Source: Blastopirellula sp.
GTDB taxonomy: Bacteria; Planctomycetota; Planctomycetia; Pirellulales; Pirellulaceae
NCBI GenBank assembly: GCA_002733575.1
Contig: NVWB01000116.1
Location: forward strand, 1 to 12,345
DNA: 12,345 bases
Direction: 5' to 3'
The notes below the pieces were generated by a model. The model was not told where the DNA came from, searched no databases, and worked only from the letters and a program-made list of their open reading frames with translations. This document shows, piece by piece, positions 2,853-11,902 of this stretch. Both the position numbers and the translations under genes were made by a program. Numbering within the stretch: position 1 is the first letter of the stretch; the number at the start of each line of letters is the position of its first letter.

Positions 2853-2945
2853 GTTGTCCCGGAGGGACAATAGCATGTAGCCAGGGGATTCATCCCCTGG
2901 AATCAAATTACTCAAAGTTCCAAAAGCCCCAGCGGGGCGATATCG
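2853..2945. repeat. Left arm of a ~95-bp imperfect terminal inverted repeat containing three hairpins (GTCCCggaGGGAC, CCAGGGGAttcaTCCCCTGG, GCCCCagcGGGGC)
   Basis: Reverse-complementing 3488-3582 and aligning it to 2853-2945 gives the same three hairpins in the same order with about 70% identity. An example is gtcccggagggacaatagcatgtagccaggggattcatcccctggaa against gtcccgatagggacgacatcgtgtagctaggggatttatcccctggaag. Confidence 0.6.
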
Positions 2946-3118
2946 AGAAAATTGAGTAGTTTTGCCGTCGGAGAACAAATTTCATCAGAGAATAATCTTT
3001 GATTGGTGATACTTCTCGGTGAACTCCACCACTTTCAACTTTCTACCCGATAATAATGTCGTCATCAAAACCTACATCGAACTTCAAAGCATCATCATAA
3101 ACCCCTTCAAAAGATGTC

Positions 3119-3300
3119 TCACGCAAAGCCGCAAAGGCGCCAAGGAAGGAAAGAAGAAGTTTTTAACACAGAGGCACAGAGAGAGCAGAGGATTGGGTTT
3201 CAGACTTCATCTTGTCAAAAAAAAGATTCTCACGCGAAGCCTCGAAGTCGCGAAGAGGTTTTGCTTCAAACTTTCTTGGCGCCTTTGCGTCTTTGCGTGA
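3119..3300. repeat. Nested 23-bp inverted repeat (3119-3141 and 3278-3300, 22/23 complementary) enclosing an AG-rich core of about 137 nt; also a 14-bp direct repeat tctcacgcaaagcc/tctcacgcgaagcc
   Basis: tcacgcaaagccgcaaaggcgcc at 3119-3141 against ggcgcctttgcgtctttgcgtga at 3278-3300, which is its reverse complement with one mismatch. The direct repeat copies are at 3116-3130 and 3227-3240. Confidence 0.55.
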
Positions 3301-3487
3301 TTTATTTTTCATTTACTTAAGGAGTATTTATGACACACAAGAATCAACGACCGGCCCTAAGTAGAATATGTCATTAGGACAAGAAAACACGGTGCTTATA
3401 CATTTCCAGAGACCGTAGCAAGAAGTGTTTGCGGTGGAGTTCAGCGAGAAGTGTTGATTTGTAGCCTTATCAACGGCTCATCAAGCA

Positions 3488-3582
3488 ATGTCGCCCCTGG
3501 CCGGGGCTTAGACGATTTAGGGCATTCACTTCCAGGGGATAAATCCCCTAGCTACACGATGTCGTCCCTATCGGGACTGAAA
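3488..3582. repeat. Right arm of the ~95-bp imperfect terminal inverted repeat (GCCCCtggccGGGGC, CCAGGGGAtaaaTCCCCTAG, GTCCCtatcGGGAC), mirrored relative to 2853-2945
   Basis: See the left arm. The hairpins appear in reversed order and orientation, so the two arms are inverted copies about 540 bp apart. Together they bound a noncoding element of about 730 bp. Confidence 0.6.
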
Positions 3583-7452: not shown

Positions 7453-8079
7453 ATGCGAACTGTAATTAGCAGTTGCCTGTTGCTCTTGGTTTTGATTTCT
7501 TCCAACGCACTGGCTGCCGAAAAAGGTTGGAAAAAACTGACCGATGGTAAAACCTATGACGGTTGGAAAATCAACGAGAACAAAGAAACTTGGTCGATCC
7601 AAGATGGTGCGTTTGTTGCCAAAGGCGACCGCAGCCACTTGTTCTATGTCGGCGATGATAGACCGTTTGTGAACTTTGAGTTCAAAGCCCAAGTCATGAC
7701 CCGCAAAAACAGCAACGGCGGAATTTACTTCCACACCAAATATCAAGACGCCGGCTGGCCCAAACACGGTTTTGAAGCCCAAGTCAACAACACCCACCAT
7801 GACCGTAAAAAAACGGCCAGTGTTTATGCCGTCAAAGACGTAATGGATGATGCACCTGCCAAAGATGACGTTTGGTTTGAGTACTACATCAAAGTGGTTG
7901 GCAAAACCGTAGTGATCAAAATCGACGGCAAAGTGGCCAACAAATACACCGAACCCGAAGGCACCAAAGCCGGCAAAGATTTCACCCGAGTCTTCAACAA
8001 AGGCACCTTCGCCCTCCAAGGCCACGATCCTGGAAGTGTTGTGTACTTCAAAGACATCGAAGTCAAACGCTTGCCGTAA
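7453..8079 (+). CDS. Secreted DUF1080 (3-keto-disaccharide hydrolase-like, LamG-type beta-sandwich) domain protein
   Basis: AGGAGA RBS. The signal peptide is MRTVISSCLLLLVLISSNALAA. The sequence then reads GWKKLTDGKTYDGWK...WSIQDGAF...GGIYFH...EAQV...ALQGHDPGSVVYFKDIEVK, a typical DUF1080 pattern. A terminator hairpin follows 28 nt after the stop. Confidence 0.85.
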   Translation: MRTVISSCLLLLVLISSNALAAEKGWKKLTDGKTYDGWKINENKETWSIQDGAFVAKGDRSHLFYVGDDRPFVNFEFKAQVMTRKNSNGGIYFHTKYQDAGWPKHGFEAQVNNTHHDRKKTASVYAVKDVMDDAPAKDDVWFEYYIKVVGKTVVIKIDGKVANKYTEPEGTKAGKDFTRVFNKGTFALQGHDPGSVVYFKDIEVKRLP

Positions 8080-8106: not shown

Positions 8107-8147
8107 ATAAAAGAGCCCGCTCTGAATCAGAGCGGGCTCTTTTTTTG
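8107..8147. terminator. Bidirectional rho-independent terminator, copy 1 of 3
   Basis: ATAAAAGAGCCCGCTCTGA/atc/AGAGCGGGCTCTTTTTTT. A perfect GC-rich stem of about 13 bp is flanked by an A-tract upstream and a T-tract downstream. Confidence 0.85.
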
Positions 8148-8193
8148 TTATCTTGTTTTTAGTAAAGGTCGCTTTATATTTCGTCAGTGTCAC
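8107..8193. repeat. Direct-repeat block 1: the terminator plus about 45 bp ending in GTCAGTGTCAC. Block 2 at 8783-8869 is in register exactly 676 bp away. A shorter copy (terminator plus TATC...GGTCGCTT) sits at 10691-10758.
   Basis: Ungapped alignment of 8107-8193 to 8783-8869 gives about 95% identity over the hairpin and about 74% over the 53 bp that follow. The shared ends are ttttgtcagtgtcac and tttcgtcagtgtcac. The block-1 segment tatcttg...ggtcgcttt resembles tatcatc...ggtcgctta after the third terminator. Confidence 0.7.
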
Positions 8194-8283
8194 TCATCGC
8201 GTGTGGTCAAAATACTCATCTGGAAGCCACGTAGGGTAGATAAATCCATATTCATCCACCTTGGAATCACGATTCAACCAAAA

Positions 8284-8298
8284 TTAACCATTGGTTAA
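8284..8298. promoter_or_regulatory. Perfect 15-bp palindrome TTAACCATTGGTTAA (copy 1), candidate dimeric-protein binding site
   Basis: The sequence is exactly its own reverse complement. It recurs identically at 8331-8345 and in degenerate form at 8470-8482. Confidence 0.5.
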
Positions 8299-8330
8299 AT
8301 TTCCCGAAAAACCCCTCTACTGCGGCGGAC

Positions 8331-8345
8331 TTAACCATTGGTTAA
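8331..8345. promoter_or_regulatory. Perfect 15-bp palindrome TTAACCATTGGTTAA (copy 2)
   Basis: Identical to copy 1, centre-to-centre spacing 47 bp. A T-tract follows. Confidence 0.5.
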
Positions 8346-8469
8346 TTTTTGATGACCGTTTTTATCGGTTACCCCGTTGTTGGTCGAATTTTTGTGTTGT
8401 TGTAACTCCCCGTCTCAAACGACTTATGGCAAGTGAAAATCCTTGCTTTCTTGGATTCAACCAAAACAT

Positions 8470-8482
8470 AACCTTTGGTTAA
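8470..8482. promoter_or_regulatory. Degenerate third copy (AACCTTTGGTTAA) of the TTAACCATTGGTTAA palindrome
   Basis: Matches the palindrome with one central substitution. A GGTTAA half-site repeats 14 nt downstream. Confidence 0.35.
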
Positions 8483-8782
8483 ATATATGACCGCGGTTAA
8501 ATCGCATCTTCACACATTTCAAACCGGTCAAAACACTCAGCTTTCCCCCCGTTGGAAATCAAATCTCGGGTAGCCCAAGTTGCAAGCAACTGGCGGCATG
8601 ATTTGTCATAAATCGGTTCCATAGCTCTGGTCCAATTTACAAAACATCTGTAAGGCACGCCGGATATTCTGTAGGGTACGCTATTGCGTACCAGCCATTA
8701 TAAAACCGCATTATAATCTCACGCCCAGGCCCAATTTCAAACCCCAATTGCACTTCACACTGGCGAAGCCAGTGGCACCCAA

Positions 8783-8822
8783 ATAAAAGAGCCCGCTCTG
8801 ATACAGAGCGGGCTCTTTTTTT
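8783..8822. terminator. Bidirectional rho-independent terminator, copy 2 of 3
   Basis: ATAAAAGAGCCCGCTCTG/ata/CAGAGCGGGCTCTTTTTTT. The stem is the same as copy 1 and only the loop differs. Confidence 0.8.
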
Positions 8823-8869
8823 GTAATCTGATTTGAAGTATCGATTGTGTTAAATTTTGTCAGTGTCAC
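8783..8869. repeat. Direct-repeat block 2 (terminator plus ~45 bp ending GTCAGTGTCAC). The motif recurs inverted at 8929-8942 (GTGAACACTGACAA).
   Basis: See block 1. The inverted third copy of TGTCAGTGT(C/T)CAC, together with 8859-8870, flanks a roughly 58-bp AT-rich stretch immediately upstream of the DUF262 gene. Confidence 0.65.
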
Positions 8870-9024
8870 CAGTCAACTTAAATAATTTGCTATTATTCTA
8901 TCTACACCTCTGTTATTATTCTTGCTCCGTGAACACTGACAAGGTAGTATTCAATATCCCCTCCTAGACTTAATGGAATTGCTAGATAGATATTTCATAA
9001 ATAATCCATAACATAAAGAATCAC

Positions 9025-10113
9025 ATGGCAACTAGTTTAAAATCAATCCGTGACGACGAAGAAGAATTACTGTACGAGGCAGATGAGTCGGAACTGCCTC
9101 CTTCCGATATCGTTGCTTTTAATGAGCAGAGGTCATGTGCTGATTTATTGCGAATGTACCAGTCAGAACAACTCATCATTCAGCCCGATTTTCAACGTGA
9201 TATTGTTTGGCCTAATCCTGCACAAACGCGGTTTATAGATTCGTTAGTGAAGGAATTGCCGATCCCAAGTATGTGCATCAGTTTTGATTACAACACAACA
9301 GAAAGACTTGTAATTGATGGGCTACAACGTATGTCAACAATCATCAAATTCCTCTCTGATGACACTTGGAAATTATCTACAGTTTCTGATGTTGACAAAC
9401 GAATATCAGGCAGGACTAATGATTACATCAAGAAGAATCACAGTTCAATTTATGATCGAATTCAAAACCTTACTATTCCTGTAACAGTACTTCGATGTGA
9501 CTATAAAAAGGAATCTCACATGAGGTATTTGTTTACAATATTTCACCGGCTCAATACTGGTGGAAGCAAGTTATCAAATCAGGAGATTCGAAATTGCATC
9601 TACAGTGGAAGTCTAAATGATTTGTTAAAAGAGTGTGTTGAAAATAAAGATTATCGTCACCTACTCAATCTCTCAGCCAAAGGAACATATCGATTTTCTC
9701 ACGAAGAGCTAGTGTTAAGGTTCTTTGCATTTACGGATAAGTTTTCGGATTATGATGGAAAGTTGTCCTCATACTTAAACGACTATATGAATCATCATCG
9801 CCATGCCGATTCGAAATTCCTCAGGAAGAAGAAAAAACAATTTTTAGAGATGATCAAAATATGCTATGAAAAACTGACTGAAGGTGCAGCTCTTCCTAAG
9901 GGAAGTAAAGCAACTACTGAAGCTATCATGGTAGGGATAGGTAGAAATTTAAGTACATTAAGGTCTACTAGGTCGGCTACAGTTCAGAAACGCATGAAAG
10001 AATTGCTTAATACTGATGAGTTTCACCCAGACAACCTAAAAAATGCTTTGACGTCAAAAGATAAAATGATATCTAGGCTGAGGAGTGCTGTAAAGGTTTT
10101 AGGTGGCAAATGA
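9025..10113 (+). CDS. DUF262 domain protein (ParB/Srx-fold, GmrSD N-terminal-like nuclease/NTPase domain), 362 aa
   Basis: DUF262 signature blocks in the expected order: IQPDFQRDIVW (FQRxxVW), QTRFIDSLVKELPIP (LIDSI...PIP), VIDGLQRMSTI (DGQQR box) and IFHRLNTGGSKLSNQEIRN (FxRLN.GG..L). The N-terminus is acidic. The gene is strongly AT-rich, with 30-40% GC in sampled 60-bp stretches against about 52% in a host-gene sample. Its stop overlaps the downstream start as ATGA. Confidence 0.85.
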   Translation: MATSLKSIRDDEEELLYEADESELPPSDIVAFNEQRSCADLLRMYQSEQLIIQPDFQRDIVWPNPAQTRFIDSLVKELPIPSMCISFDYNTTERLVIDGLQRMSTIIKFLSDDTWKLSTVSDVDKRISGRTNDYIKKNHSSIYDRIQNLTIPVTVLRCDYKKESHMRYLFTIFHRLNTGGSKLSNQEIRNCIYSGSLNDLLKECVENKDYRHLLNLSAKGTYRFSHEELVLRFFAFTDKFSDYDGKLSSYLNDYMNHHRHADSKFLRKKKKQFLEMIKICYEKLTEGAALPKGSKATTEAIMVGIGRNLSTLRSTRSATVQKRMKELLNTDEFHPDNLKNALTSKDKMISRLRSAVKVLGGK

Positions 10114-10607
10114 TAAGCAAACAAGAAATCGAACGCGATCTAATTAAATTAAAAAGGCTATATGAAAAAGCACCAGATACTCATACTAGTGTGTTCTATT
10201 CGAAGCTTGCAATTCTTGAACTGAGTAGTTGGATCGAATTAAGTTTTGATAAAATAGTAAAACGGTCCATTAATAACAAACTGACATTATGTAAGTATCA
10301 AGCCCTAGTTGAATCGAGTATTAAGAGGAACAACAGTTTTTCGTACAAAAACCATTTTATTCCGATGTTACAAAAAATATCAGGGTTGGTGGCTTGTGAA
10401 GACATCGAGACGAAAATCAAATCCAGCGGTAAGTTTGAACAGCTCACAAACGAATTAACGATCTTAGTAGAAGAACGAAATAAAGCCGCACATGTTGGAG
10501 TTCGACATACAACATACGATGCACCATCTGTTACGATACAAAGATTCAAAGATCTGTATCCGACGATCAAGGATATGTATACATGGTCAGTAAGGTACTG
10601 TTCCTAA
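10110..10607 (+). CDS. Small all-alpha protein with an Rx4H motif (EERNKAAH), candidate HEPN-like RNase partner of the DUF262 protein (MAE_28990/MAE_18760-like)
   Basis: The ATG overlaps the upstream stop by 4 bp (ATGA), implying translational coupling. The sequence is rich in helix-forming residues (L/E/K). The only catalytic-looking feature is the HEPN-type R-x4-H at residues ~123-128. AT-rich like its partner. The family assignment rests on the motif plus the known genomic association of DUF262 genes with MAE_28990/MAE_18760 HEPN genes and was not verified by search. Confidence 0.5.
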   Translation: MISKQEIERDLIKLKRLYEKAPDTHTSVFYSKLAILELSSWIELSFDKIVKRSINNKLTLCKYQALVESSIKRNNSFSYKNHFIPMLQKISGLVACEDIETKIKSSGKFEQLTNELTILVEERNKAAHVGVRHTTYDAPSVTIQRFKDLYPTIKDMYTWSVRYCS

Positions 10608-10690: not shown

Positions 10691-10733
10691 AAAATAAAAA
10701 GAGCCCACTCTGTAACAGAGCGGGCTCTTTTTT
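10691..10733. terminator. Bidirectional rho-independent terminator, copy 3 of 3, serving the HEPN-like gene (+) and the Gfo/Idh/MocA gene (-)
   Basis: AAAATAAAAAGAGCCCACTCTG/taa/CAGAGCGGGCTCTTTTTT. The stem has one mismatch (A opposite C) relative to copies 1 and 2. It lies 27 nt beyond the stop of the minus-strand oxidoreductase gene. Confidence 0.8.
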
Positions 10734-10759: not shown

Positions 10760-11902
10760 TTACGCGATGTCGACCCATTTGCGTTCGGCGGCGCTTTCTA
10801 GTACGGCGTCGCAAACTTTGGCGGTTTCTAGTGCGGTTTTGAAACTTGGTTCGCATACGGTGCCATCTTCTAGACTCTTCAAGAAGTCGGCCACTTGATG
10901 GACGAAGCTGTGTTCATACCCGATGCTTAATCCTGGAACCCACCAGTGATCCATGTACGGCATGTCTCCATCGGAAACATGTACTTTGTGCCAACCACGG
11001 ACGAGCGAGTCGTCGCGGTGATCGAAGTACTCTAAGTGGTTCAAGTCGTGCAAGTCCCAGCGGATCGAACCATGTTCGCCGTTGATTTCTAGCGTGTACA
11101 ACGCCTTGTGTCCACGAGCATAACGCGTCGACTCAAACAAGCCCAACGATCCATTGGCAAAATGGCAATGGAATACACAAGCGTCATCGATGGTGACCTT
11201 CTCCATCTTGCCGGTCAATTGATGCATTCGCTCTTTGATGAAGGTCTCGGTCATGGCTGATACGTCAACGATGCCGCCGTTAAGCCACATGGCCGTGTCG
11301 ATACAATGGGCCAACAGGTCACCTGTTACGCCAGAGCCTGCGGCTTCCGCGTCTAACCGCCAGAGTGCTTCGCCACCTTGAGGCAAGTCAGCGTTGATCG
11401 TCCAGTCTTGCAGGAAGTTCGACCGGTAATGAAAGATGCGACCTAGGCGGCCTTCGTCAATCAATTTTTTGGCCAACGAGACGGCCGGAATTCGGCGGTA
11501 GTTGTACCACACGGTATTCGCAACGCCCGCTTCTTCAACCGCGGTAACCATTTCTGCGCCTTCGGCAGTGGTGCGTGCGATTGGCTTTTCGCACAACACC
11601 ATCTTGCCTGCTTTGGCAGCCGCGATGGCAATTTCGTTATGCGTGTTGTTCGGCGTGCAGATATCAATGGCGTCGATATCGTCGCGTGCGACCAGTGCTT
11701 TCCAATCGGTCTCGTAAGACTCGTAGCCCCACTTGGCAGCAAAGTCTTTCGTCTTCTCTTCGTTACGACCACAAACGGCCTTCAGCACTGGGGTGTATTC
11801 CAGTTCTGGAAAGAAGTCAGGGGCTCGCTTGTAACCGTTGGAATGCGTACGGCCCATGAAGCCGTAGCCAACCAGTCCAATGTTCAGCGGTTTTTTTGCC
11901 AT
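10760..11902 (-). CDS. Gfo/Idh/MocA family NAD(P)-dependent oxidoreductase
   Basis: The N-terminal Rossmann fold is [19 protein letters not shown], and the EKP motif appears in MVLCEKPIA. At 380 aa the length is typical. GGAG lies 11-14 nt upstream of the ATG on the minus strand. Confidence 0.9.

Follow-up and report, generated by a model that had tools for sequence, protein, structure and literature searches.

A DUF262–HEPN gene pair in a marine planctomycete that matches the anti-phage system PD-T4-2

A stretch of 12,345 nucleotides (nt) from a metagenome-assembled genome (MAG) of Blastopirellula sp., a marine member of the Planctomycetota (contig NVWB01000116.1; hereafter the window), contains two overlapping genes that are almost certainly an orthologue of PD-T4-2, an anti-phage system of Escherichia coli. 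Gene A (open reading frame 1, ORF1; 9025–10113, plus strand) encodes a protein of 362 amino acids (aa) and corresponds to PD-T4-2_A, and gene B (ORF2; 10110–10607, plus strand) encodes a protein of 165 aa and corresponds to PD-T4-2_B. Both are taken from a mechanical list of open reading frames. The validation of this kind of system in E. coli dates from 2022, and it is the planctomycete copy that is new. Taken as a whole, the locus is best explained, with high confidence, as a horizontally acquired PD-T4-2 operon in which A would serve as a sensor and B as an RNase.

The gene pair and its counterpart in E. coli

Both proteins of the pair match the PADLOC profiles of PD-T4-2 over practically their full length. 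Residues 5–359 of ORF1 align with positions 7–361 of the 363 in PD-T4-2_A (PDLC04027; E 2.1e-159, 528 bits), and residues 1–159 of ORF2 align with positions 1–162 of the 168 in PD-T4-2_B (PDLC04028; E 8.3e-50, 167 bits). A pair from E. coli (NZ_CP013025.1) served as comparator. It consists of a 375-aa DUF262 protein and, after a gap of 4 nt, a 167-aa protein annotated as 'HEPN domain-containing protein', and it scores 538 bits (A) and 213 bits (B) on the same profiles. Aligned with the E. coli proteins, ORF1 shows 48% identity to A across 360 residues (E 2e-124) and ORF2 shows 39% identity to B across 157 residues (E 2e-31). The motif RNKAAH of ORF2 aligns with RNAAAH of the E. coli protein, so that H128 of the former corresponds to H127 of the latter. 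It is these full-length matches, scores that approach those of the comparator, and the shared gene order, orientation, and tight spacing that identify the pair as PD-T4-2. The initial annotation of the window, made from the letters alone, had already read the pair as a two-gene phage-defense cassette, a reading that the matches to a validated system bear out. PADLOC holds the profiles of both proteins, and the system is also carried by DefenseFinder.

The planctomycete and the E. coli loci agree in their two proteins, in the order and direction of the genes, and in the virtual absence of a gap between them: a DUF262 protein without DUF1524 is followed by a HEPN protein of about 165 aa with an R-x4-H motif. 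They differ in host, a marine planctomycete as opposed to an enterobacterium, and in the junction between the genes. In the window the stop codon of A (TGA, 10111–10113) is overlapped by the start codon of B (ATG, 10110–10112) in the context aaATGAtaa, whereas the E. coli genes are separated by 4 nt. The overlap (ATGA, 10110–10113, plus strand) can be read directly in the sequence, as the initial annotation had done. It is consistent with the two genes being carried on one transcript and having coupled translation. The loci also differ in setting. The E. coli comparator is cargo of a P4-like satellite, adjoining an integrase and ssrA, whereas the planctomycete pair is a solo insertion flanked by duplicated terminator hairpins.

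PD-T4-2 was found in E. coli ECOR65 by a functional selection with phage T4 and is listed there as 'DUF262, HEPN', validated (Vassallo et al. 2022, PMC9519451, Table S1). The system protects E. coli K-12 against T4 when cloned, and its deletion from native ECOR65 restores plaquing of T4. This validation overturns the statement of the initial annotation that pairs of DUF262 and HEPN genes had never been tested. In the same study, HHpred assigned the A protein to DUF262 (99.7%), followed by DndB and ParBc, and the B protein to HEPN_RiboL-PSP (97.8%) and HEPN_MAE_28990 (96.9%) (Table S3). Strain ML3719 of its Table S6 is 'PD-T4-2 (PD-T4-2B H127A)', and the residues mutated in four systems, this histidine among them, are reported to be 'essential to phage protection'. 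Therefore, the histidine-to-alanine experiment that the initial annotation proposed has already been carried out on the prototype. Later papers group PD-T4-2 both with the DUF262 systems that lack DUF1524 and with the HEPN systems.

A related three-gene system, Menshen (NsnABC), also has to be considered, since ORF1 matches the NsnA profile as well (E 2.3e-55) and ORF2 aligns faintly and in part with NsnC (E 0.0036, residues 7–83). Protein A is indeed related to NsnA, which combines DUF262 with a C-terminal helical domain termed 'ParBDB', and both systems are predicted to have an effector of the RNase type. On these grounds the pair could be a decayed or minimal Menshen that lacks the NsnB ATPase. 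This is extremely improbable, as ORF1 scores 528 bits on PD-T4-2_A as opposed to 186 bits on NsnA. The locus has two genes rather than three, with neither an NsnB-type ABC ATPase nor an inPIN effector of the NsnC kind, and neither the window nor 17 kb of the contig contains an ABC-ATPase gene. We also checked for an ATPase across the family, in a scan of one genome per species that gave 374 genomes with a relative of A, the best 80 of which were analysed; it is not a recurrent neighbor in these 80 loci. The published survey of Menshen likewise counts PD-T4-2 as a separate DUF262 system.

Several points weigh against the identification of the pair as a defense operon of the PD-T4-2 type. The Pfam match of ORF2 to a HEPN family is barely over its threshold (28.7 as opposed to 28.4 bits), and a sequence search of the PDB with A and with B returned no homologue. 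The nucleotide-pocket motif of A reads DGLQR where GmrSD has DGQQR, and NTPase activity of A is assumed. The link from the comparator to the ECOR65 prototype rests on PADLOC scores, HHpred coordinates, and the numbering of H127. Phage protection is known for the E. coli prototype only, the planctomycete copy being read from sequence, and a 2025 paper still terms PD-T4-2 'largely uncharacterized'.

The two proteins and how they may act

Protein A belongs to Pfam family PF03235 (GmrSD_N, formerly DUF262; E 6.8e-24), which agrees with the DUF262 assignment of the initial annotation and with the first of the two profile searches it had proposed. The protein consists of an N-terminal DUF262/ParB-fold domain of the NTPase type (residues ~40–193) and an all-helical C-terminal domain (~196–359). 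Its fold is that of GmrSD and ParB, with GmrSD, BrxU, and SspE as top structural matches. Four motif blocks are invariant among 16–27 homologues: F56-Q57-R58-D59..W62, F70-x-D72-S73-L74...L78-P79-I80-P81, D98-G99-L100-Q101-R102, and F173-H174-R175-L176-N177-x-G179-G180. All the signature blocks of DUF262 that the initial annotation named are thus present, apart from a trivial slip by which FIDSL was given as LIDSL. As it had also stated, DUF1524 is absent; no Pfam match to DUF1524/HNH is found in ORF1 or ORF2 even at E ≤ 1, and no gene of this kind is found among the neighbors on the contig. Searches of NCBIfam gave nothing meaningful for A or B.

The role of DUF262 as a sensor and NTPase in GmrSD, BrxU, and SspE has been reviewed (PMC10952713, PMC12065111). 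Protein A shares with these enzymes the N-terminal DUF262/ParB-fold domain with the motifs QRxxxW, DGxQR, and FxxxN, followed by a helical domain. It differs from them in having DGLQR in place of DGQQR, in lacking the His-Me/HNH nuclease domain DUF1524, in its length (362 aa as opposed to ~560–580 aa), and in that the effector is a separate HEPN protein. It could be argued that the pair is a split type IV restriction enzyme, in which A recognizes modified DNA as GmrS does, B takes the place of DUF1524, and the pair destroys phage DNA. The structural matches of A to BrxU and SspE point in this direction, as do the original description of GmrSD as two genes and the selection of the prototype on T4, whose DNA is glucosyl-hydroxymethylated. 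However, with no DUF1524/HNH in A, in B, or nearby, a DNA-destroying enzyme is unlikely. The fold of B and its R-x4-H motif are those of HEPN RNases, and characterized HEPN enzymes are reported to cleave RNA or cyclic oligoadenylates.

Protein B is, judged by its sequence, a stand-alone HEPN protein of the RiboL-PSP-HEPN family, with R123 and H128 as predicted catalytic residues. The second of the proposed profile searches placed it in PF18735 (HEPN_RiboL-PSP; E 1.5e-6) with 28.7 bits, the cut-off being 28.4. It folds as a single-domain helical bundle of the HEPN type, with 8–18% sequence identity to solved HEPN structures. The initial annotation had predicted a HEPN partner with an R-x4-H motif, and this motif is R123-N-K-A-A-H128. 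Across the 80 B proteins, which are 25–44% identical to ORF2 (median 34%), R123 and H128 are conserved in every sequence and G92 is invariant as well, while K32, E37, E43, and D47 are 99% conserved. Neither a different fold nor a poorly conserved R-x4-H, either of which would have spoken against the HEPN prediction, is therefore what is found. As to the subfamily, the annotation had named MAE_28990/MAE_18760. The HEPN call stands, but RiboL-PSP-HEPN fits better than MAE_18760; in HHpred, MAE_28990 ranks second for the E. coli B protein. The RiboL-PSP-HEPN family had already been recorded with an 'operon with ParB' by Anantharaman et al. (2013).

Protein B resembles a range of HEPN effectors and toxins, such as HepT of HEPN-MNT, HepS, DARNA/PD-T7-3, Csm6/Csx1, and RnlA/LsoA, in its helical HEPN fold and in an Rx4-6H motif. 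It differs from them in its partner, which is a DUF262 protein rather than an MNT, a CARF, or a fused sensor domain. HEPN effectors and toxins act by RNA cleavage in both defense and toxin-antitoxin (TA) systems. The pair might accordingly be seen as a type II TA or addiction module, in which B is a HEPN RNase toxin, A is its antitoxin, and the module stabilizes the island without sensing phage DNA. This is unlikely, because the upstream gene encodes a 362-aa DUF262 protein with invariant nucleotide-pocket motifs, which is neither a small antitoxin nor an MNT, and because the E. coli prototype protects from phage in its native context. No nucleotidyltransferase match, as would mark a HEPN-MNT system, is found in the pair or its neighbors on the contig. 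Vassallo et al. list PD-T4-5, PD-T4-7, PD-T4-9, PD-T4-10, and PD-lambda-2 as TA-like, and PD-T4-2 is not among them. It should be added that TA behavior and defense are compatible.

For the PD-T4-2 pair, the mechanism that we favor to a modest degree is one in which A senses phage DNA with the aid of nucleoside triphosphate (NTP) and B is the RNase effector. The sensor role of A is assigned on the example of the DUF262 domains in GmrSD, BrxU, and SspE, and the RNase role of B from what is established for HEPN nucleases. A would act as sensor and switch, recognizing phage DNA that is probably modified or otherwise non-self, and would bind or hydrolyze NTP through the pocket formed by QRxxxW, DGxQR, and FxxxN. 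Switching by NTP would then release or activate B. The latter, probably as a dimer, would cut tRNA, mRNA, or rRNA at an RNase site that is formed by R123 and H128 and needs no metal, whereupon translation would stop and phage production would be blocked. The ligand of A, the RNase activity of B and its targets, and the control of B by A are all proposed here, and the mode of defense may be abortive infection or direct immunity.

Spread of the family and linkage of the two genes

Relatives of A are numerous in the databases (more than 6,500 at E ≤ 1e-10), and the best 80 of the 374 genomes come from many bacterial phyla and include two archaeal MAGs, one of Thermoplasmatales and one of Methanoperedens. 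Gene B lies directly downstream of A on the same strand in 76 of the 80 loci, the exceptions being three contig ends and one truncated A. In 74 loci the two genes are between −23 and +11 nt apart, and in 73 of these the spacing does not exceed 10 nt. The divergence of A is correlated with that of B across the loci (Spearman rho 0.48, p 1e-5). The linkage of A and B is obligatory. When the B profile was run against 1.84 billion cluster representatives, 659 clusters of the B family were found, and nearly all of the best 150 of these are stand-alone proteins of ~165 aa.

No third gene accompanies the pair throughout the family. A conserved third component was considered and is ruled out, as the largest cluster of neighbors occurs in 9 of 82 loci, and most of the larger ones trace to Microcystis genomes that are close relatives of one another. 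Each Pfam or PADLOC family is represented in at most 3 of the genes that immediately adjoin the pair, 125 in all. The neighbors are housekeeping genes with scattered defense genes among them (JetA, methyltransferases, HNH, Vsr, PD-T4-6). Operons for DNA sulfur modification (dnd/ssp), a setting that the initial annotation had named as one that would undermine a defense reading, are not recurrent among the 125 immediate neighbors or 562 flanking ORFs, and no such gene is found on the contig. The annotation had also proposed a survey for enrichment in defense islands; the neighborhoods surveyed here show mostly solo insertions that do not lie within islands. In collections of plasmids and phages only DUF262 relatives below 32% identity are found, with no close copy of the PD-T4-2 type.

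Individual loci depart from this general picture in several ways. The two archaeal MAGs (loci L013, Thermoplasmatales, and L025, Ca. Methanoperedens) have complete A–B pairs whose A proteins are 53–55% identical to that of the planctomycete, a similarity that points to a recent movement of the module between domains. The closest homologue of A (71% identity; locus L004, 1845–13841) is followed by an overlapping gene for a 163-aa B protein and sits amid IS66 transposases, a large serine recombinase, and a TIR-domain gene. This context is clearly mobile and rich in defense genes, unlike the solo insertion in the window. In a gammaproteobacterial MAG, a divergent DUF262 gene (locus L075, 1011–2102, minus strand; E 3.7e-29 to ORF1) lies ~4 kb from a PD-T4-2 pair, and two distinct DUF262 systems may stand there side by side.

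In five Microcystis loci (L023, L024, L027, L046, L050) the pair is immediately followed, at ~7660–8076, by the same gene of ~138 aa, all five copies falling into one cluster. In L024 this gene encodes an endoribonuclease L-PSP/RidA protein (PF01042, E 3.5e-44), which may be a lineage-specific third component in Microcystis. The presence of an L-PSP gene after B in Microcystis explains both the Pfam name RiboL-PSP-HEPN and a 294-aa B model in PADLOC. ORF2 is a member of the family so named (PF18735), but the L-PSP fusion or adjacency in Microcystis from which the name derives has no counterpart in the planctomycete locus, which lacks an L-PSP gene.

The B gene is easily overlooked. In a Planctomycetaceae genome (GCA_046349755.1; locus L005, 9110–9613) the ORF of a 167-aa B protein is left uncalled despite its ATGA overlap with the stop of A and its motif RGNAAH, and the B protein of the ECOR65 prototype has 'No ID' in GenBank (Vassallo et al. 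2022, Table S2). Because B is often missed by gene callers, annotation-based tools probably under-count complete PD-T4-2 systems.

Probable acquisition and the insertion site

The A–B operon, ~1.9 kb in extent, looks to have been acquired horizontally by the marine Blastopirellula. The low-GC stretch around the pair has a GC content of 0.37 as opposed to 0.49 elsewhere in the window. Gene A has a GC content of 0.376 and a third-position GC content (GC3) of 0.350, and gene B has 0.355 and 0.349, whereas six flanking genes have 0.47–0.53 and 0.47–0.62, in line with the foreign composition noted in the initial annotation. Horizontal acquisition fits both this low GC and GC3 and the patchy spread of the family over bacterial phyla and archaea. 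The pair stands as a solo insertion amid housekeeping genes. The exact A sequence is deposited as the Blastopirellula MAG protein COA78_16450, annotated as 'hypothetical protein'.

It is conceivable that the operon is an inactive relic whose genes are intact by chance and whose function has been lost in this host. The exact copy is found in one genome only, the pair stands alone with neither an integrase nor other mobile-element genes nearby, and its GC content is still far from that of the host. Yet a relic is very unlikely, given that both ORFs are of full length, all residues invariant in the family are kept, and the ATGA coupling is preserved together with the terminators on both sides. 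All of the rival explanations of the pair are minor beside a PD-T4-2 operon.

The operon is bounded by copies of a terminator-like repeat with a perfect hairpin, AAAAGAGCCCGCTCTG-NNN-CAGAGCGGGCTCTTTT, at its core, and the repeat occurs in three direct copies. Copy 1 of the hairpin (8109–8145) lies in the first of two 87-nt direct repeats (8107–8193), just past the gene of a 3-keto-disaccharide hydrolase (7453–8079). Copy 2 (8785–8821), with a GC-rich stem of 16 bp and a T run, lies upstream of the operon inside the second 87-nt repeat (8783–8869). Copy 3 (10697–10733) resembles a bidirectional terminator; it is located 90 nt past the stop of B and 27 nt from the stop of a convergent Gfo/Idh/MocA gene (10760–11902, minus strand). 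Over the 87 nt, copies 1 and 2 of the repeat have 83% identity, and they share a further ~20 nt on the left; copy 3 shares the hairpin and ~30 nt on its right. The two hairpins that flank the pair, at 8785–8821 and 10697–10733, have perfect, GC-rich stems of 16–17 bp followed by a T run, as would suit the insulation by terminators that was described from the letters. Terminator-like sites are in excess in the 3 kb around them (7 found, as opposed to 2.6 ± 1.3 in shuffled sequences). An Rfam search matched the hairpins to leader and attenuator families that contain terminators, in every case below the threshold of the family.

A candidate promoter of the sigma-70 type (TTGTCA-18-AATAAT; 8857–8886, plus strand) is located 139 nt upstream of the start of A and is a consensus match only. 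Promoter-like sites show no excess in the region (6, as opposed to 8.2 expected from shuffles), so that this promoter evidence is weak.

Copies 2 and 3 bracket the defense operon, and copies 1 and 2 bracket an ORF-poor segment of 590 bp. This segment (8194–8782) has a GC content of 0.43 and contains three copies of the 15-nt palindrome TTAACCATTGGTTAA (at 8284, 8331, and 8468), which look like operator sites. Neither of its two small ORFs (63 and 53 aa) matches a Pfam family. The segment may have a regulatory role or be what is left of a further cassette.

The hairpin repeats may have arisen by duplication of a target site or of a terminator upon insertion. A more far-reaching reading is that the three repeats mark a small cassette-acquisition site that works without an integrase, where repeated insertions at a bidirectional terminator each duplicated the terminator. 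We regard this as unlikely. If true, the site would be a minimal defense hotspot in a planctomycete, comparable to an integron or a cluster of attC sites lacking integron integrases (CALIN), with att sites that double as terminators, and the pair would still be PD-T4-2. A reading of the hairpins as integron attC sites was considered as well. Such sites have R''/R' cores (RYYYAAC ... GTTRRRY) and imperfect, bulged stems; inspection by eye only does not favor this reading, as no GTTRRRY core is seen beside the hairpins, and their stems are perfect and trailed by T runs like those of intrinsic terminators. No integrase is found within 21 kb of the contig.

The hairpin is not found elsewhere in ~21 kb of the 25-kb contig or in an exact-pattern scan of metagenome contigs. 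Therefore, in the available data it does not belong to a dispersed family of the repetitive extragenic palindrome (REP) or miniature inverted-repeat transposable element (MITE) type. Duplicated flanking hairpins as a general trait of PD-T4-2 are ruled out as well, being absent at three other loci of Planctomycetota and at the locus of the closest homologue. A search for an empty site that would delimit the insertion yielded no informative one. The nearest miaB orthologues, those of Blastopirellula marina, of B. sp. JC732, and of a metagenomic contig, have only 78–79% identity, and the genes that lie downstream of miaB do not keep their order.

Apart from the operon, the window contains three nested pairs of inverted repeats with a common center at ~3215 (2863–2902/3530–3569, 40 nt; 3011–3030/3433–3452, 20 nt; 3110–3148/3271–3309, 39 nt). 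The three pairs make up a foldback element of ~700 bp (2863–3569) in a low-GC spacer between an SPFH/flotillin gene and def.

With regard to the biology of the system, the hairpin that delimits the insertion in three copies is a curiosity of this locus. The find extends PD-T4-2, which is validated and mechanistically uncharacterized, to a marine planctomycete, and in this respect adds very little that is new. At the level of the family, PD-T4-2 ranges over many phyla of bacteria and extends to some archaea, and the pair usually stands as a solo insertion outside defense islands. The adjacency of A and B, the lack of a conserved third gene, and the invariant residues are facts about the family that could aid work on its mechanism.

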